Below, piece after piece: positions 22,154-35,855 of a stretch of 64,000 nucleotides of DNA. The stretch is from positions 291,486 through 355,485 of the IMG/VR virus record IMGVR_UViG_3300030332_001481, one strand, 5' to 3'. Made by a program: the position numbers and the translations under genes. The stretch comes from a virus (lineage: Duplodnaviria > Heunggongvirae > Uroviricota > Caudoviricetes). Numbering within the stretch: the stretch's first letter is position 1; each line of letters begins with the position of its first letter. The notes beneath the pieces are model-generated. The model had not been told where the DNA came from. It worked only from the letters and a program-made list of their open reading frames with translations, and did not search any database.

Positions 22154-24154
22154 TCACCGGGACGTAGCCCGGAACCTGTGGTCGGGGTTCTGCCGCAGGA
22201 AGTAGATGAAGCGGTGACTGTCCACCTCAAACTGGAATTGGCCCTCCCTGTCGAGCACCAGGAGACGATGAGAGGTAGTGTTGTTACCCTCCACCTTCTC
22301 CAGAGCCTGCAGAACCTCAAAGCGGTGCCCCAGCCCAAGACTGTCCACACGACTCTGTGCGGCACTCACGGGGTCTTTCTTCTCGAAAAAGGTAACTTCA
22401 GGCCCGTACTTCTTACACTTGCCGAAGAATCCACCCAGAACTCGGGTGAATTCGTCGTTTGTGCGCTTGTCCCTCACCCGGAGGGTCCAGAACATACGGC
22501 CACTTGTCTTGGTGCGTGACGGGATAGCTTCCTGTACCTCCAAGATGGAGTCGAGTCCCATCTTTGTAAGCCGCTGGTTTGCCTTCACCACCTTTGCTTG
22601 GCGCACTTCCTTCCCAGGAAGGGGCAGCTCAGCCCGGCTGTTGTCTCGCCGGGTTAGTGGTGGAGCCTCTTCTGGCGAGGAGGGCGGCAGCGAGGAGGTT
22701 TCCCGGAGTTCGAGGGTCCATTTCGCTTGTCCACAATCCCATATCCGGGTGTAGCCCGCGTCTACCCCCGACGACCCGGGGTACTTCATGCGATGGAGCG
22801 TCTCTGTTCCGTTGGTCCACTTGAATGAGGGGTACTCAGACACCTTGGTCCAGCCTTGGGCCTCCAGGTGAGATCCGTCTCCATACCTACGGTCCACGAA
22901 CGTTTGGATCATAGCGGGGTCATAGTGGTTGATGACGTGACGCAGCAGCCTGCTCCATCCACCGGGGACAGCGTGGCCTCCCCGAGTACAGAACCGACTG
23001 ATGTCTAGAAGCTCACCTACCTGCACCCACCTCACCTGCATGGCGCACAGGGTCTCCCCTCGGTACGACAGTGAGAAAACCTGACCGGAACCCCTGCCCA
23101 TGAGGTGATGAGTATCGAAGAACTCAGCACTCCCAGGAACTATGGTACATTTCCGCGCTCCTGTTGTGGTACTCTTCCCTACCGCGTGGCCCAGGATGGA
23201 ACGTACTGCCTCAGTCCTGAAAGTGATCTCATCTGACCGAAAGAACAAAGGGCGGTACCCCAGTGCCTCGAACTCTCTCCTGCGGTGCAGGTGGTGGTTT
23301 CGTCCTTTCCCCGTAGCTTCTGAGTGGAAGTACAATCCGTCGCACTCGATCACCACGTCGTAACCAGGAACCAGGAAGTCGGGGCGTAGAGTGGACCCGG
23401 GAAGCTCCTTGTTATGAATGTAAGGCACTCCCAGGTCTGTAAGAAGCTGGGACACTACATTCTCGATGACGGTGCCCGTACCACGAACCAGGTCTGGTAC
23501 CTTGGCAGTCCCACAGTTAGCCACCAACGCCCGTGCATAGGTGTTGGATATCCCGTTGGCAGCCGCCCATTCATCGATGGGCTGACCTTCAACGATAGTG
23601 GTCAGCCCTTTGTCGATGAAGGCCTTTTTGGTGAGGGAAGACCGCTCCTCTGATGTTGGACTGAAAAGTCTGTCGGGATTCTTCTTTAGCTCACGGATGA
23701 ATGCAGGACCACTGTAGGTAAACTCACAATCACGGTTGATGTCCACGATGGTGAAATGGTACGTGGTCTTTAGAACCTTACCCTCAGTACTGATGCGAGC
23801 GGTCTTCTTGTTCAGGTCGAGCACCTGGTACGTGGAGGGTTTCAAGGCGTCTGTTTTTGCCTGAAGGCGGGTAACGGCTCGGTTCCTCTCCTCATCTGAG
23901 GTGGGGATCTCTTTCACGGAGGTCTTTGACGCGCTGGGGGTGCGGATCTCGTAGGTAGGACTGTCCCGCAAGTTCTTGATGACCTTCATCAGGTTCTTAC
24001 GCAGAACCTCTTCCCCCGTAGCCAGGACACGAAGCCGGACCCCAAGATTTGTCCCTGTGGAGGGGACCACCTCCACCACTTGGTACTTACCAGGACGCAA
24101 GCTGTCGATTACCTGCTGGTAGTGCAGCACTCTGTGCGTTGGTTGTGTGGCCAT
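22154..24154 (-). CDS. Modular homing-endonuclease-like protein A (repeats, Vsr/DUF559-like nuclease, GNAT-like domain, repeats)
   Basis: RPDFLVP...IECDGLYFH nuclease motif; HHLMGRG...ISRFC...GGWSRLL...TFVDRRYG...RIWDCGQAKW domain. Confidence 0.8.
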   Translation of the reverse strand: MATQPTHRVLHYQQVIDSLRPGKYQVVEVVPSTGTNLGVRLRVLATGEEVLRKNLMKVIKNLRDSPTYEIRTPSASKTSVKEIPTSDEERNRAVTRLQAKTDALKPSTYQVLDLNKKTARISTEGKVLKTTYHFTIVDINRDCEFTYSGPAFIRELKKNPDRLFSPTSEERSSLTKKAFIDKGLTTIVEGQPIDEWAAANGISNTYARALVANCGTAKVPDLVRGTGTVIENVVSQLLTDLGVPYIHNKELPGSTLRPDFLVPGYDVVIECDGLYFHSEATGKGRNHHLHRRREFEALGYRPLFFRSDEITFRTEAVRSILGHAVGKSTTTGARKCTIVPGSAEFFDTHHLMGRGSGQVFSLSYRGETLCAMQVRWVQVGELLDISRFCTRGGHAVPGGWSRLLRHVINHYDPAMIQTFVDRRYGDGSHLEAQGWTKVSEYPSFKWTNGTETLHRMKYPGSSGVDAGYTRIWDCGQAKWTLELRETSSLPPSSPEEAPPLTRRDNSRAELPLPGKEVRQAKVVKANQRLTKMGLDSILEVQEAIPSRTKTSGRMFWTLRVRDKRTNDEFTRVLGGFFGKCKKYGPEVTFFEKKDPVSAAQSRVDSLGLGHRFEVLQALEKVEGNNTTSHRLLVLDREGQFQFEVDSHRFIYFLRQNPDHRFRATSR

Positions 24155-24224: not shown

Positions 24225-24255
24225 AACCCCCTTCGAGATAGTCTCGAAGGGGGTT
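24225..24255 (-). terminator. Intrinsic terminator after endonuclease B
   Basis: AACCCCCTTCGAGA-TAG-TCTCGAAGGGGGTT hairpin, T-run on minus strand. Confidence 0.85.
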
Positions 24256-26087
24256 CACAAGGCCTTGACCCATTTGGCTTGACCGCAGTCGTAGAGCCGG
24301 TCGTACCCGAAGTCGTACCCGGTTTTGCCGCGGAACTTGGTCCGGGCGTACCGCTCTAACTCTCCTTTGACCCAGGAGAACGAGGGCTCCGGAGGGTCCT
24401 TGCTCTTCTTCACCCACCCCTGCTTGCTGAGGTAGCTGCCGTCGCCGTAGCGAAGGTCGATGAAAGTAAGGACGGACTTCGCAGATGGAAAGGCTTCCCG
24501 CACACCGTGTGTGAGGAGCCGAGAGAAACCACCCACGACGGAGGTGCCCATGGCGGGGGAAAATCTGGCCACTTCCAGCAGCTGATCCTCCTTACTCTTC
24601 CACTTGAGCTGCATCCCAGCTACGGGTTGGCCCTGGTGAAAGAGGCCGAAGGAGGAGCCCCGACCACGCCCCATGAGGTGATTCGTGTCGAAGAACGACG
24701 GGCTCAACTCAGCGAACTCAAGCTTCCGGGCAAAATGCCGGGCTGTGGATTTGCCTAGGTGGTTCATCAGGATGGAGCGACAGATCTCAGGCTTGTAGGT
24801 AAGCTCGTCGGACAGAAAGAAGAACGGACGAATGCCCCGCTTGAGGTAGCGGAGTCGCCTGTTCCGATGGTGAAACATCGCCTTTTTGCGCGCTTCTGCC
24901 TCGGGCAGATCTGCGTACCGTGACTCCAGGGCGAACATGAACCCGTGCCAATAGTTGCCCTCACACTCAATAGCTACGTTGTGGTCGGGAAGGTAGAAGT
25001 CCGGCCGCATCTTGCTGCCGGGCAGTTGAGAGTCGTGGACGTAGGGAAGCCCTTCTTCATGGAGCCACGACTCTACCAAGGCCTCAATGTTCGTCTTACC
25101 ACGGTTGCACGTGGCCACCAGGCCCTCGACGTCACCAAGGTTCCGCATGTTGGTGCGAAGGGTGATTGGCGACACCTCAAGGAGGTCCGCAAGTTCCTGA
25201 AGTGAGCGTCCCCCAAAGACCTTGGTGGTCCCGTTCTCACCCATCTTTGCCTGCCGGGTCTGCGCTGATGGTGCGAACACAAACTCCGGGTCGGAGCGTA
25301 GCTTCTTGAGGAACTTCTGCGCGGGGGCGGTCACCTCACGGTCGTCTCGCTGGTCCAGCACACGCAGGTGGACCATGGGCTTGCCGTTTCGCCTGTCTTT
25401 TCTGTCGACCTCCAGGAGCTTCAGGTGCGGCGCCTGGCTGTCGAACATGGCCTGGTACCACTCAAAGGAAGATTGCGAAGGGAGCCCAACCTTGGCAGGG
25501 AGCCGGCTCCGGTTGAGGCCCATGTCCTTCGAGATGGAAGAAATAGACTCCCCCGACGCCCACCTCTTGATGACGGTACGCGACAGCTCATCCGAAGTCT
25601 TTTCTAGCAACCCGTGAAGCACGGACCCAGGGGCGCAGGGCTCGAAGGCCGCGTCCCGGTAGACGGCTAGAGGATCATGGGGAGGATCGAAGTCGAAGTC
25701 TGGATCGGAGCCTTGCCCCAGAAGGTCTTTGAGGGGGACTTTCTCGATGCTCTCGGCCTTCAGCGATAAGGCAACTACCATGCAGGTGTCGTCGTCCCGG
25801 TAGGACGCGGAGAGGACCCTGAAACGACCCTTACCGATGGTATCGTCCAGCTTCTCCTGGCAGAGATCTTCCAGGACACCCTGGTGTTTGAACTGGTGGT
25901 AAGGGTTGACCCGAAGGCTATAACCCAGCTTGTGACCCCTTTTCTTGAAACTCCTTTTGTTGGAGTTGTCATAGAGGAGCCAGTAATCACCTTTAGGGTG
26001 AGGTAACACCCTGAGAAGCCTGAACCTATTATCGTGGGGATAGGTGGCTAACAGCTTTCTTGCTTTCTTTAACTTTTCTGAGGGCAT
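24255..26087 (-). CDS. Modular homing-endonuclease-like protein B
   Basis: RPDFYLP.HNVAIECEGNYWH; NHLMGRG...VARF...GGFSRLL...TFIDLRYG...RLYDCGQAKW; paralogue of A and C. Confidence 0.8.
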   Translation of the reverse strand: MPSEKLKKARKLLATYPHDNRFRLLRVLPHPKGDYWLLYDNSNKRSFKKRGHKLGYSLRVNPYHQFKHQGVLEDLCQEKLDDTIGKGRFRVLSASYRDDDTCMVVALSLKAESIEKVPLKDLLGQGSDPDFDFDPPHDPLAVYRDAAFEPCAPGSVLHGLLEKTSDELSRTVIKRWASGESISSISKDMGLNRSRLPAKVGLPSQSSFEWYQAMFDSQAPHLKLLEVDRKDRRNGKPMVHLRVLDQRDDREVTAPAQKFLKKLRSDPEFVFAPSAQTRQAKMGENGTTKVFGGRSLQELADLLEVSPITLRTNMRNLGDVEGLVATCNRGKTNIEALVESWLHEEGLPYVHDSQLPGSKMRPDFYLPDHNVAIECEGNYWHGFMFALESRYADLPEAEARKKAMFHHRNRRLRYLKRGIRPFFFLSDELTYKPEICRSILMNHLGKSTARHFARKLEFAELSPSFFDTNHLMGRGRGSSFGLFHQGQPVAGMQLKWKSKEDQLLEVARFSPAMGTSVVGGFSRLLTHGVREAFPSAKSVLTFIDLRYGDGSYLSKQGWVKKSKDPPEPSFSWVKGELERYARTKFRGKTGYDFGYDRLYDCGQAKWVKAL

Positions 26088-26178
26088 TATGCCTCTCCCG
26101 TTCGGTCTCGTTAGATCTGCCGTTACCAGGGTCTTTACAGGTCCGTACGTAGGAAAGTCGCTTTAGCTATGAGAACAA

Positions 26179-26314
26179 GGCTTTTCTTAGTGATTTCAGC
26201 TAGTTATCAGGCTTTTAGGATCGACCACTACCAAGCTCTTTTTATGCCTTAAAAAGAAAAGCCCCGTTCGCAGTGCGAACGGGGCTTTTCTCAATGGTTT
26301 CAGCTAGTTATCAG
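26179..26314. repeat. 32-bp imperfect direct repeat (26179-26210 and 26283-26314)
   Basis: GGCTTTTCT-N6-TTTCAGCTAGTTATCAG twice, 29/32 identical. Confidence 0.85.
26255..26291 (-). terminator. Intrinsic terminator of the major capsid gene
   Basis: AGAAAAGCCCCGTTCGCA-G-TGCGAACGGGGCTTTTCT inverted repeat followed by a T-run on the minus strand. Confidence 0.9.
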
Positions 26315-26841
26315 ACGCGAACGCCACGATCACACGCTCGGCCATTGACGATCAGCTGCGATTGGATCTGCTCCATGAACCAACCACGACGCGCACGACC
26401 CAGGTTGTACTGGTCGATCGCCCTGGAATCCAGTTCCTTGCGCTGGAGAATCGCGCCAAGCGTCACGGGTGACGCGGTGACGTAAACCTCACCAGGCTGC
26501 AGGACCTGCAGGGTGTCGTAGCGGAAGCCGTCTGTGATGATTTCCATGCCGAGCATGGAACCAAGACGACCCTCAAGGATAAGCTCATGCTTGTGGACCT
26601 GGTCCCACCAAGCAACAAAGTCGGCATCTGCGATGATGTCATCCCAGATGTCGAAGCTGATGAGCATGGTGGACGCCGGGGTGCCCCAGCGGTTGACCTG
26701 GGTACGGAGCGTGGTCAGCACGGACGGGTTGAACGTTGTGAACATCACAAGCTCGTTGAACGTTGTGCTGGCCTGGTTGAGAAGCGCGCGGGTGATGAGG
26801 TCCTCGCGGCGAAGAATCGCCTCAAGGCCGTCCTGGAACTT
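26311..26841 (-). CDS. Major capsid protein, exon 3 (5' edge 26841 to 26831 depending on register)
   Basis: Frame reads KFQDGLEAILRREDLITRALL and continues into track ORF 26311-26748 (EGRLGSMLGMEIITD...GEVYV, HK97-fold-like C-terminus). Confidence 0.85.
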   Translation of the reverse strand, partial: KFQDGLEAILRREDLITRALLNQASTTFNELVMFTTFNPSVLTTLRTQVNRWGTPASTMLISFDIWDDIIADADFVAWWDQVHKHELILEGRLGSMLGMEIITDGFRYDTLQVLQPGEVYVTASPVTLGAILQRKELDSRAIDQYNLGRARRGWFMEQIQSQLIVNGRACDRGVRV

Positions 26842-27233
26842 CGTTGTTTGTTACTGATCAGTAGTTGGACCGTATAAATCCAACCACTAACCGGGAAGGT
26901 CATTTCTGCCTTCCTCTGCAGTTTCATGTATAGCTGCAGACCAGACTATATCTTCTACCAAGTTGGGTTCCTTGGCAGTGCCGCCCCCTGCTACGAGGTC
27001 TCCCCCGTTAGCAGCCGAATTATCGTCATGTCGTCACCAGCACTCTAGGGCTTGTTACCCTGCCCCAGGGTGCCTCCGATTTAGACTTTCGGTAGTCGTT
27101 ACGCACACCTGACAGTTTCCCGTCAGGCTTCACTCGGTGTGGCCTTGCCTGTTCCACCAGGTTCAAGGTTTCCACCGATTTCGCGGCATTTGCTAACATC
27201 CTATTGCTAGAATGAGACGAGTTAGTTGAACTT
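26842..27233 (-). ncRNA. Group I intron 2 in capsid gene, no ORF, 392 nt, large P7 extension (IA-like)
   Basis: P AAATCGGTGGAA, Q CACCGAG, R GTAACGACTA (27102-27093), S AAGATATAGTC (26954-26944), P3 TGCCGC/GCGGCA, GCAA-capped P2; removing 392 nt restores the frame. Confidence 0.85.
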
Positions 27234-27481
27234 CTCGTCGAGAATGTCCGTCGAGGCCTGCTCGATCTCCTTGTCCTCAATGAGGATGAAGGCACCGAGG
27301 TAGAACTCTGCCGGGTAGACCCACGGCTGACGGATGCGCTGCTCTTCGATCGCGCTGTCGCTGGTGAACTGGTACGCGACCACGTCCTTACGACGAACAC
27401 GAACACGACCGGTCTGTCCCTTTGCAAGCGGGTTCACCGCCAGAAGGCGGCGGCTGAAGCCCTGGCGACCCAGGGTCTCCC
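27234..27481 (-). CDS. Major capsid protein, exon 2
   Basis: (W)ETLGRQGFSRRLL...YPAEFYLGAFILIEDKEIEQASTDILDE; in frame with exons 1 and 3 after splicing. Confidence 0.85.
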
Positions 27482-28377
27482 CATTGATGTTACGCTGCAC
27501 ATTTCTGTTGCAGCCTGCGTCTTCATTTATTCACGCAGATCGGACTATATCTTCACCCCTCGTAGAGGGGGACTGGTACATAGTCTCTACACCTTCCCTG
27601 CACTGATTGCTCGCGCGCACAGCGTTCAACCCTCACGGGTATCGGGCTCGGCTCGGTATTGTCTAAGGATAGTGGGCGGTAGCTTATAGTGCATGGAATC
27701 TACCATGCAGACATAGGGGGCAGCGAGGTTCCAGAACTCTTCTTGAGACTTTGCCCGAAGGTTTAAGTACCAGTATTGGTTCTGGCGCTGGATGCTGAAA
27801 CTGAGGTTGAACCTATCGTGAAGACAGGCAGCAAGTGCTTCGTTTTCAACAAGTGAGTATGCGTGAGTGGCGAACACAACCTCCCAACACTTTGCTGAGG
27901 TGTCGCGAGATTTGTCTGATCTTCCCTTCCACTTCAGACTTCCGTCATCCATGTACCATATGGCCAGCCCGAGAGGACTGAGGGAGTTTACTAGGTGCCT
28001 GTCCACTGTTCGTCTTCCTTCGAAGTATAGACGATGTCTCAGTTTACCGAACAATGGGTGTGCTTTCGCACGCAGTCTCAGTACGTCATAGCTACCGCTA
28101 ACGTAGCCTTTGCCATTTGGATAGTTGTACTTGGAGTAGGTGGTCTTACAGACCTGATTGAGGATGTCACATTTGAAATCCATCAAGTCCGTACTGTCAG
28201 CTTTGTGCTCAATGAGCACAGATGCTGTGTTTTTACCACTGGCCTCTAAGTGTGCGTCTCCGAGAGCCATCCCAATGATGGCGCCCTTCAACTCTTTTCT
28301 ATTCATCTGACCACAGATTTTCACCGAATTCTCCAGTATTTGTCATGCCCATTGCTGGACAAGGATCCTAGGAGTTA
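27482..28377 (-). ncRNA. Group I intron 1 in capsid gene, 896 nt
   Basis: 5' exon ends in U; P1 GAUCU/GGAUC with U.G pair; P10 CUCCU/GGGAG; P3 ACUGG/CCAGU; R GTAGAGACTA (27590-27581); S AAGATATAGTCC (27553-27542); terminal G 27482; junction ATC T|GG GAG reads I-W-E. Confidence 0.93.
27626..28306 (-). CDS. Intron-encoded LAGLIDADG homing endonuclease (two-motif type)
   Basis: IIGMALGDAHL and LAIWYMDDGSL motifs; lies inside intron 1. Confidence 0.9.
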   Translation of the reverse strand: MNRKELKGAIIGMALGDAHLEASGKNTASVLIEHKADSTDLMDFKCDILNQVCKTTYSKYNYPNGKGYVSGSYDVLRLRAKAHPLFGKLRHRLYFEGRRTVDRHLVNSLSPLGLAIWYMDDGSLKWKGRSDKSRDTSAKCWEVVFATHAYSLVENEALAACLHDRFNLSFSIQRQNQYWYLNLRAKSQEEFWNLAAPYVCMVDSMHYKLPPTILRQYRAEPDTREG

Positions 28378-28726
28378 AGATCTCCTCGGAGAGAACCTCT
28401 CCGAGAACCTCAAGCTTGGTGTTTGACCGGTCGTAGTAAGCTTCCCGTACCTGAGCGAGGCGCTCCTGCATGACCTCGGGGGACGCGTGACGTTCCATCA
28501 CGTTACCCTCGCGGCTCTGCTGAAGCACGTTCGCGACGACCTGCATAAGCTCCTTCTTGGAAGAAGCGTTTAGCTCGCCATTGGAACCGAACGCGGGACC
28601 TGAGCTGAGAAGCTGACGACCAGCGACACGGATACCTCCACGGAGGCCATCCTCGGAAGTCGCGGGGACGTCGGGCTGCGAACGCAGGACCTTTACGCCG
28701 GGACCAGAAGCATAGGGGTTTGCCAT
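28378..28726 (-). CDS. Major capsid protein, exon 1
   Basis: MANPY...NGELNASSKKELM...LGEVLSEEI; exons total 349+248+531 = 1128 nt, i.e. 375 aa plus stop. Confidence 0.85.
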
Positions 28727-29148
28727 TACTATTTCCGTTTCTTGGATTCGGTCTCGCCTTGCGGCTCAACCTCTTCCGGATTTTTGGTAACGGGTTCGGT
28801 GTGGTCTTTCTAAACCACAAGTGTGAGAACCCACTACCGGATTGTTAGCGGTTAGTAGTTACCTTATTCAGTTTTCAAGGTCGGCCAGCTGGTCAGCTGC
28901 CCCGTGGCAGCTGGTGGCCTGTTTTGGGTCTGGGTGCCCAATGAGGCTGCGGTTTATTTGGGGAGGCCATCCTTGGCCTGAAAGGTAACGTAAGGCTTTG
29001 CTTCTGGTGACCCAGCGCCGTCAAGCACTGAATCGGTGGCACTGTTGCGCCTGAGACTGGAGGACGTTGTAACGTCCCGATGGTTAAAGTATAACACCGA
29101 AACCAATTGTTGTTATTCAATGGTTCCGGTGTGTTGAAGAGCGAGGGC
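28727..29148 (-). other. Long hairpin-rich intergenic region/5' leader of the capsid gene, with possible extended -10 (TGTTATACT, 29096-29088)
   Basis: About 420 nt with no convincing CDS and many stems (GGACGTT/AACGTCC, CAGCTGCC/GGCAGCTG, GTGGT/ACCAC, GGGTTC/GAACCC, GGTAAC/GTTACC). Confidence 0.45.
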
Positions 29149-33664: not shown

Positions 33665-34290
33665 TGCAAATACTTGACTGGCTCGATAAACTCTACAAGA
33701 AGTCAACCCCAGGCGAATGGATACACACCGGGGATGTTACTCCTCGCGCCATTGACTGGCATGACGCTCCTGATGGGCACGATCCCACGTCGGTAGTGGA
33801 ATCTGAAGAAGACGCTCTGTTCCTCGTTACCCTTCGCAATGTGTTCCCACAACTGATGGAAGTGGTCCGAGCAGCCGAAGAGCTGAATCTACAGGCGAAG
33901 GACTCAGACCTTAAGGATGCGCTCTCTAACCTGGAGATGAAACTGCGGGAAGAGAGCGAAAAGCATGAGTGTCCGGGCTGCGAAGGGGAAGACTTCATCT
34001 CATCTAACCGTGCGGGTGCCGAGTGCATGAACCCCAGCTGCGAGTACTATAGCCAGCCGTTTACCCTCAGCGAGATAACGTGCGAAGTAAAACGACGCCT
34101 CAGGCTCATCCTACTCAGAGGGGAGTCAGATCCATTCCCACAGTTCGAATCAACGTTCAAGGGATGGATGGTGTCTCAGGCGTCTCCTACAGTTATTAGG
34201 TGGTCACGAGGGGAAGAGCACTTTGACTTTCCCCTGGAAGTTCCAAACTTTCCTACGGAAGTACTGAGGTCCGATAAGCCGGTAACATGA
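33664..34290 (+). CDS. Ead/Ea22-like N-terminus plus zinc ribbon
   Basis: KSTPGEW...DALFLVTLRNVFPQL; CPGC...CMNPSC. Confidence 0.6.
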   Translation: MQILDWLDKLYKKSTPGEWIHTGDVTPRAIDWHDAPDGHDPTSVVESEEDALFLVTLRNVFPQLMEVVRAAEELNLQAKDSDLKDALSNLEMKLREESEKHECPGCEGEDFISSNRAGAECMNPSCEYYSQPFTLSEITCEVKRRLRLILLRGESDPFPQFESTFKGWMVSQASPTVIRWSRGEEHFDFPLEVPNFPTEVLRSDKPVT

Positions 34291-35855
34291 ATTCCCCCTG
34301 TGACGAAGTAGAGAAGTACCAGAAGAAGCTAGACCTGCTCTCACCGGGCAGGTTTCGCATTTTGGAGCTTGTTGCCGTAACCAGGTACGGAAAAGCCCGC
34401 AATATCCAGCGCAGGTTCCGTTTCCGCGACGTTCAAACCGGAGCTGAGTTCGAGTACTACTGGCACAAGATCCAGGCCGAACTTAAGAAGAACCCGGAGA
34501 AGACTTTCCAAACGGAGGACACCCGGTCCGACACGGAGAAGTATCAGGAGCAGCTGGATGACCTGGCTCCCAGAAGGTTCTCCGTACTTCAATGCTTCAA
34601 CAAGCAGCCTAGCCCTGAGAGCCGGAGCCGCAAGTACGTCAGAGTCCAAGACTCCAAGTACTCTACGGAGTTCGACTACGACATTGGAGCACTGAAGCAG
34701 GAGCTGAGGGCTAACCCTGACTCGCGCTTCTTCGTCGAAGAGTTCTGCGAGAAGGACTTCACGTCCGAAACTCAGTCCAAATTTGACGTCCTGTCGCCGG
34801 GGAGACTGAGGATACTGGGCGCACGACGCACGGGTCCTCCATACAAGTACGAGATTGACTTCATCGACACCTGGTCATGGCGAAAGTGGGAGGGTGAGAA
34901 CCCATACACGTGGATCCGAGGACTGACCGAGGACCCCGAGTACTCCCGCCAGGAGGCCATTGAGCTGGAGGGTAAGACCCTGCCGCAGATTGCGGAAGAG
35001 CACGGCTACAGTCGGGCGCACATCCACAAGCTATACAAGAAGTGGGGCGATGACTTCATCGACTACCTGAAGCCCCATGCTCCCTACTCACCGCTGGAGG
35101 TGCTGGTACAGGGGTGGCTTGATGGAGAAGAGGTGGTCCTAGGCAAGAAGCTCGACGGTACCAACATCTTCCCAGACGTATATCTGCCGCAGCACAACCT
35201 GGCGGTGGAGTGCGATGGTCTGTACTGGCACTGCGATCGCTTCCGCGACAGGCGTTACCACTTCGAGCGCCGACAGACCTACGAGTCAGTAGGAGTCAGG
35301 GCCCTCTTCTTCCGAGAAGATGAGCTGCTGGAAAAGCCGGAGATCTGCCAGGGCATTCTACAGAACGCGCTGGGAAGGAGCCGTAGGGTGTTCGCCCGTA
35401 AGACCACGCTCGGCAGTGCTCCACCCTCTTTCTTTGAGAAGAACCACCTCATGGGTAAAGGAAGTGGCCGAGGCTACGGTCTGTACCACGACGGGGACCT
35501 GGTAGCGGGGATGAGAGTTCGATGGGTTTCAAAGTCTCAGAGACAGCTCGACGTCTCTCGGTTCTGCACCAAGCTGGGTGTATCCGTTGTGGGTGGTTGG
35601 TCCAAGCTACTCAAGCACGTCATTGGCCAGGAAGACCCTTCATCCATTCGTACCTTCGTAGACATGAGGTACGGAACAGGGGCCTACCTAGAAAAGATGG
35701 GGTGGAAGCTGGAGTCTTGCCACGCCAGCTTCAACTGGACGAAGGGGATGGAGTCGTTGCACCGGCTACGCTACCCTGGGAGTTCTGGGTATGAGGCGGG
35801 GTACCGAAAGATATGGGACTGCGGGCAAGCCAAATGGGTGTTGCAGGTGAATTAG
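34287..35855 (+). CDS. Modular homing-endonuclease-like protein C
   Basis: Three N-terminal repeats of about 65 aa, HTH (TLPQIAEEHGYSR), PDVYLPQHNLAVECDGLYWH, C-terminal RKIWDCGQAKW. Confidence 0.8.
   Translation: MNSPCDEVEKYQKKLDLLSPGRFRILELVAVTRYGKARNIQRRFRFRDVQTGAEFEYYWHKIQAELKKNPEKTFQTEDTRSDTEKYQEQLDDLAPRRFSVLQCFNKQPSPESRSRKYVRVQDSKYSTEFDYDIGALKQELRANPDSRFFVEEFCEKDFTSETQSKFDVLSPGRLRILGARRTGPPYKYEIDFIDTWSWRKWEGENPYTWIRGLTEDPEYSRQEAIELEGKTLPQIAEEHGYSRAHIHKLYKKWGDDFIDYLKPHAPYSPLEVLVQGWLDGEEVVLGKKLDGTNIFPDVYLPQHNLAVECDGLYWHCDRFRDRRYHFERRQTYESVGVRALFFREDELLEKPEICQGILQNALGRSRRVFARKTTLGSAPPSFFEKNHLMGKGSGRGYGLYHDGDLVAGMRVRWVSKSQRQLDVSRFCTKLGVSVVGGWSKLLKHVIGQEDPSSIRTFVDMRYGTGAYLEKMGWKLESCHASFNWTKGMESLHRLRYPGSSGYEAGYRKIWDCGQAKWVLQVN

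Follow-up and report, generated by a model that had tools for sequence, protein, structure and literature searches.

The U·G pair that nearly all group I introns have at their 5' splice site has natural exceptions with C-G or C·A, and 16-pair tests have been made with the Tetrahymena ribozyme, where the A preceding A207 is the sheared partner of A114. According to Tourasse et al. 2014 (PMC4227781), the 5' exon of a group I intron ends virtually always in U and exceptionally in C; the same paper describes the group B IStron BcISt1 of Bacillus cereus ATCC 10987, which splices after G in vivo, as determined by RT-PCR, with its U·G shifted one pair downstream of the cut. The model for docking of P1 is the IC1 ribozyme of Tetrahymena; it has been reported that A207 and A114, in J4/5-J5/4, recognise the wobble (PMC9943679), and that a Watson-Crick G·C(-1) pair lowers docking ~100-fold (PMC13692252). 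Our literature search, in which the older literature is thinly covered, returned no phage intron with G-C at the cut and no relocated guide.

The locus compared here lies in a window of 64,000 nucleotides, the whole stretch of DNA analysed, within the 388-kb record of a marine jumbo phage. Its major capsid gene (28726..26311, minus strand) is split by two insertions, and the protein has its relatives in the capsid proteins of PaBG and the Erwinia jumbo phages. An intronless homologue matches PHROG 2522 (major head protein), and tblastn with such a homologue finds one major capsid gene only in the genome. The parts of the gene are as follows:

28378..28726, minus strand: capsid exon 1, ending ...GAGAUCU (tblastn of an intronless homologue)
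27482..28377, minus strand: intron 1, canonical group I, 896 nt, with U-1·G and J5/4 CAA
27626..28324, minus strand: LAGLIDADG homing endonuclease ORF in intron 1 (PHROG 11023, E 8e-16)
27234..27481, minus strand: capsid exon 2, ending ...GACGAG (D-E)
26842..27233, minus strand: intron 2, a predicted ORF-less, IA-like group I intron, 392 nt in register A
26311..26841, minus strand: capsid exon 3, starting AAG UUC CAG GAC GGC (K-F-Q-D-G) and running to the stop codon

Intron 1 is precisely spliced, as a contig from RNA-library run X18 joins 27481 to 28378 with exactly 896 nt missing. None of the RNA-library contigs (runs X18 and X20) lies over intron 2 or its junctions, so they are uninformative about it either way. 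A need to remove intron 2 is suggested by three things: the capsid gene is single in the genome, the intron carries an in-frame stop, and an RNA library contains the gene with intron 1 spliced out. Around the gene we also observed a terminator-like hairpin 3' of the capsid stop, with a diverged 60-nt copy of that stretch coming after it (window 26151-26291), and an interval of ~340 nt that separates the upstream ORF from the capsid start (28745-29080, minus strand); this interval seems to contain inverted repeats and may be a structured leader. Three long ORFs (22154-24154, plus; 24255-26087, minus; 34287-35855, plus) share a similar C-terminal nuclease-like region, and the one tested, 24255-26087, matches the homing-endonuclease families PHROG 559/3339.

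The elements of intron 2, as read from sequence and fold, are these:

27216..27239, minus strand: P1, exon GACGAG (27239-27234) with guide CUCGUC (27221-27216) and splice-site pair G27234:C27221; within its loop lie the AAGUUC repeat, AACU (27227-27224) as predicted P10 guide, and an in-frame UAA (27224-27222)
27197..27214, minus strand: P2 hairpin, 7 bp with a GCAA loop (fold)
27134..27188, minus strand: 5' strand of P3 (27188-27182) and P4 (27178-27173 with 27139-27134), with J4/5 GAAA and P5 in the same segment
27142-27140, minus strand: J5/4, CCA, where C replaces the first of the usual two A's
26943..27133, minus strand: P6/P6a, P7, P3', P8 and J8/7 AAGAUA (sequence, fold, motif tables)
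27097-27093 and 26948-26944, minus strand: P7, GACUA with UAGUC
26985-26979, minus strand: P3' strand, preceded by extra helices after P7
26856..26939, minus strand: P9, P9.1 and P9.2, the last a 16-bp hairpin (26892-26856) whose 5' strand had been proposed as a distal guide
26842..26853, minus strand: 3' end UAACAAACAACG with predicted omega-G 26842, a site common to the related contigs L107, L111 and L114

The fold is far more stable than that of shuffled sequences (z = -7.5), with all helices intact. The P3-P7 core is present, with a G-binding site (bulged base and G-C pair) and J8/7, and GUAACGACUA and AAGAUAUAGUCU fit the family motif tables; P4, P5 and P6a of the P4-P5-P6 domain fold as well. 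Extra helices between P7 and P3' are the criterion for subgroup IA, and intron 2 has ~105 nt of hairpins there (27091-26986), so that by its predicted layout it is IA-like with an intact group I core. Across the window, Rfam model RF00028 gives no match at gathering score, and at E<=5 only part of intron 1 is matched; since that intron is spliced and still barely matches, the model is insensitive to this family. P6 of intron 2 reads G-C, U·G, G·U, a variant present in 0/82 family introns among the matches listed, which could be adaptation or drift.

Intron 2 shares the P2/P4/P7/P9 layout with canonical phage mRNA introns (intron 1, seven introns of homologous capsid genes, and LittleE), and also the UAACA...G 3' end and insertion in a virion gene, LittleE's being a capsid intron (PMC3706429). 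Unlike intron 2, these introns all have U at -1, and the eight tested here combine U·G with J5/4 xAA. Group B IStrons resemble intron 2 in having a group I ribozyme with P7.1/P7.2-type extras and a 5' exon ending in G (here a boundary that we infer); they differ by a U·G at +1, an IS607-type transposon (ORFs, 3' inverted repeats) and no target duplication, whereas intron 2 has A·A at +1, no transposase ORF and 6 nt that repeat the beginning of the 3' exon. It is therefore not an IStron, for want of both the U·G at +1 and the transposon. We filed it as a group I variant, because the core is present and the U·G and tandem-A features are absent.

The ends of intron 2 are ambiguous, since they carry a direct repeat (G-AAGTTC-AAC at 27234-27225, G-AAGTTC-CAG at 26842-26833), and we confirmed that the three registers drawn from it in the initial annotation are each 392 nt and in frame. 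In register A the last exon base is G27234 and the omega-G is G26842 (intron 27233..26842, product KFQDG); register B uses C27225 and G26833 (KFNDG), and register C uses U27224 and G26832 (KFNYG). A fourth 392-nt option (G27231/G26839), here register A', yields an mRNA and a product (KFQDG) identical to those of register A, so that the ligated products are indistinguishable, while a 383-nt option, register D, gives KFNKFQDG. The match between the intron start and the 3' exon start is 6 nt, against 0-3 nt in eight control introns. A sequencing error hiding a local U·G, named at the outset as what would overturn a non-canonical site, was looked for and is not there: contig L001, 98.8% identical across 7.6 kb, carries an identical intron 2, contigs from two runs not flagged as source span the junctions without difference (X7, 27033-27349; X6, 26791-27038), and all copies seen, from independent assemblies and runs, are identical.

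For the 3' end, a comparison is offered by L107, L111 and L114, whose introns terminate with TAACA-N5-G|AAG at the codon boundary where G26842 would close intron 2. The distance from the UAACA-type motif to the omega-G is 5-7 nt in 11 related introns (these three same-site introns and eight with ends set by protein homology), while the candidate G's of intron 2 stand at 7 (G26842), at 10, at 16 in register B and at 17 in register C. G26842 is thus likely to be the omega-G, its spacing being the one that falls near the family values, although 7 is the top of that range, which counts somewhat against register A.

The protein narrows the choice further. From 106 capsid loci examined, 68 non-redundant intronless homologues cover the junction, and all 68 are free of gaps at residues 190-212. 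At position 203, Q stands in 54/68 and N in 3/68; position 204 is D in 64/68, E in two, Q in two and Y in none. The proposed check of Q/N and D/Y in homologues therefore fits KFQDG, tolerates KFND and speaks against KFNYG: registers C and D are disfavoured and register B is tolerated. Among the closest intronless alleles, 10 of 11 read K-F-Q-D-G and one K-Y-T-D-G. The family also matches phage G gp27 (6WKK) in an alignment that is gap-free across the intron 2 junction, and the junction may lie within the HK97 spine helix, in line with this match; a structure model of the capsid from 10 sequences reached a pLDDT of only 34. Given an omega-G at G26842, the length of the protein is kept solely by a cut after G27234.

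A cut at that position requires a 5' splice site after G, and the local helix is as first described: P1 GACGAG/CUCGUC pairs 6/6 by Watson-Crick pairs, with G-1:C and no local U·G (probability 0.94-0.95 in the free ensemble). Its top pair, G27234:C27221, lies 7 nt before P2, the same distance as the U·G of intron 1, and it is G-C where the eight other capsid-gene introns (intron 1 and seven others) all have U·G; at +1, A faces A, so that there is no U·G there either. The P10 predicted for register A is 4 bp, offset, with -1.7 kcal/mol (controls 2-6 bp). Efficient cutting at G-1:C would be unexpected from the model ribozyme, given the ~100-fold loss of docking reported for Tetrahymena (PMC13692252).

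The docking pocket is changed as well. J5/4 is CCA in intron 2 and xAA in 8/8 control capsid-gene introns; compared with Tetrahymena (PMC9943679, PMC13692252), intron 2 retains the A207 equivalent (27140) but has C in place of the A before it, and G-C as its splice-site pair. A fixed-spacing J5/4 scan of viral contigs, which detects only introns with the 30-nt P6 spacing, gave 16 loci for CA, of which 15 were non-introns by inspection and one was the L001 contig; for AA it gave at least 122 loci (~170 estimated) with 100 distinct matches, 82 of them distinct introns with both flanking core motifs. The J5/4 change is thus rare and coincides with loss of U·G, in a single lineage. To speculate, the A-to-C change may adapt the docking pocket to a G-C pair.

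Four features of the locus are established by sequence and comparison: a core that is intact, a P1 helix placed where the family has its own, a 3' end common to related introns, and a constraint from the protein. We consider it probable that intron 2 self-splices in register A, restoring D-E-K-F-Q-D-G through a local P1 closed by a G-C pair; the non-canonical splice site suspected in the initial annotation finds its support in this form, from the 3' end, the protein and the local P1, with BcISt1 as a precedent for splicing after G. The local P1 would dock and exogenous G would attack after G-1 (G27234), the AGUU of the 3' exon would then displace the intron's AGU on the AACU guide as the P1 extension gives way to P10, and the exons would be ligated at G26842. 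Such an exchange would account for part of the direct repeat. More speculatively, the 6-nt repeat may be recipient exon sequence that overwrote the P1 loop when the intron arrived where U is rare. In the 68 alleles, the last base of the codon preceding K is U in eight, C in 30, G in 24 and A in six; with U so seldom on offer, the whole family of introns inserted here may be non-U.

In L107, L111 and L114 the contigs stop short of the introns' 5' ends. L106 ends at GACGAGAAG and shares its assembly prefix with L114, and both are closest to L023 among intronless loci; the two may belong together as a second G-AAG case, which we do not count as the contigs are unlinked. Pattern scans for complete same-site introns (31 loci in viral contigs, at least 120 of ~180 in genomes) found only the L001 contig, which was also the sole match to the exact core pattern of intron 2. 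The exon-end pattern gave 15 loci, of which the two new ones read (L279, L280) are intronless. In the same-site introns (L107 1-768, L111 1-347, L114 1-450) an endonuclease-like ORF (NPDF...VVE.MDF..WH) runs nearly to the omega-G; a profile of it gave six loci, three of which were scanned and lacked intron core motifs, and the ORF of L107 has no PHROG match and no homologue in this genome. With blastn, named phages gave short P9 matches only, mostly to Cluster J introns (best 20 of 87). The capsid family is an intron hot spot with at least seven insertion sites (L079, L106, L114, L117, L118): L079 and L106 each have two closely spaced introns, and in L111 (337-362) two introns flank a 15-nt micro-exon (K-Y-Q-D-G) of the homologous gene.

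Register D, or a mixture of products, is the alternative that survives best, and we regard it as unlikely. Here G26842 would be used with a downstream 5' cut, to give KFNKFQDG or a mixture with forms that gain or lose K. It would combine the supported 3' end with a UAAC-type start, loss of U·G could lower fidelity, and every such product is in frame; against this, the 68 homologues show no indel here, the match to phage G gp27 is gap-free, and in the local helix C27225 belongs to the wrong strand.

Register B we hold to be quite unlikely. It would cut after C27225 and join after G26833, with distal GUUGGAUUU supplying P1 (C-G at -1). The intron would then begin UAACUC, as intron 1 does, GG/CC-A-G could by sequence form P9.0, N occurs at position 203 in a few homologues, and its P10 (UCGUC with GACGG, 5 bp, -4.6 kcal/mol) is stronger than that of register A. 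However, its omega-G would stand 16 nt past UAACA where the family has 5-7, the three same-site introns terminate at G|AAG, it has no local P1, and CUCGUC fits the 5' exon in 6/6 positions and the 3' exon in 5/6, with one G·U.

The distal strand deserves its own account, as both register B and register C lean on it. The pairing proposed for it can be drawn: taken as a duplex by themselves, 26892-26876 and AAGUUCAACU can form 10 bp at -7.9 kcal/mol, and the 5' part of the distal strand has a weak pairing (-3.9 kcal/mol) with the 3' exon of register C. The same strand also forms the competing local hairpin that had been pointed out, P9.2, with 16 bp and -21.3 kcal/mol. The distal complement of 11 contiguous bp is the longest among nine introns (others 7-10), and a run of this length is unusual (fraction 0.008-0.012; 0.012 of 500 shuffles), which favours a guide in either register. 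In 1000 shuffles the duplex energy is not exceptional (0.065 and 0.088 in hand-picked windows, 0.62 and 0.79 in wider ones), and forcing the distal pairing raises the ensemble from -200.9 to -185.4 kcal/mol, a cost of 15.5 kcal/mol, with an unforced probability of 0.000, in a fold model that omits pseudoknots and tertiary contacts and with the distal target sitting in the P1 loop. Partial pairing of the P9.2 strand with this P1-loop target is possible. Related capsid-gene introns carry a hairpin in the place of P9.2, unrelated in sequence. The complementarity is probably fortuitous, the strand being rich in G and U, although at the ~1% level it lacks an explanation. As a separate observation, inspection by eye shows ~12/16 nt shared by the P9.2 3' strand (26873-26856) and the 5' junction (27231-27216, minus strand), a resemblance that mirrors the distal complementarity. 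We see little prospect that the guide has moved, i.e., that the local P1 guide is lost and the opened P9.2 5' strand brings the exons into line from the RNA's distant end in register B or C; if it has, splicing of an essential capsid mRNA would depend on a strand-exchange switch.

Another option is that intron 2 is damaged and splices poorly or never, in a phage that is defective or helper-dependent. Loss of U·G, the changed J5/4 and the two P6 wobble pairs (a P6 variant in none of the 82 family introns among the matches listed) would agree with decay; identical copies in independent assemblies and runs, the intact helices and the single capsid gene argue against it, and although a change to GAU (D, common here) would restore U at -1, the guide is matched to G. 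We therefore think it very unlikely.

Register C with the relocated guide, where the P9.2 5' strand would swap partners and align the exons around U27224·G26885, is the least credible: it keeps the U·G rule, a 10-bp P1 with a bulged P10 can be drawn and the run length is rare, but Y is absent at a position that is D in 64/68, the omega spacing is 17, the distal conformer has a pair probability of 0.000 at +15.5 kcal/mol (in the model without pseudoknots and tertiary contacts), the duplex energy lies within the shuffles (0.065-0.79), a G/U-rich strand inherently pairs loosely, and a retained U·G would leave the changed J5/4 unexplained, so the switchable guide suggested for it is not borne out. 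On the alternative splicing with varied capsid residues that was also raised in the initial annotation, the data are neutral.

Two further candidates were rejected. A U·G helix of exon GACAUU with the P2 3' strand would delete L-D-E and break P2, and illustrates the ease with which such pairings turn up. Translational bypass instead of splicing fails by reasoning, as there is no in-frame landing codon and the insert is 392 nt.

The 5' splice site of intron 2 is real and unusual. According to PMC13692252, it is chiefly the U·G pair that restricts the targeting of group I ribozymes in trans-splicing and RNA circularisation. Splicing of intron 2 after G, with no nearby U·G and one change in the pocket, would offer a direct test of how a Watson-Crick splice pair can be read, and canonical intron 1, in the same mRNA and seen spliced, is a built-in control. 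The case is also a warning that phage capsid genes will be mis-called by intron finders that demand U at -1.
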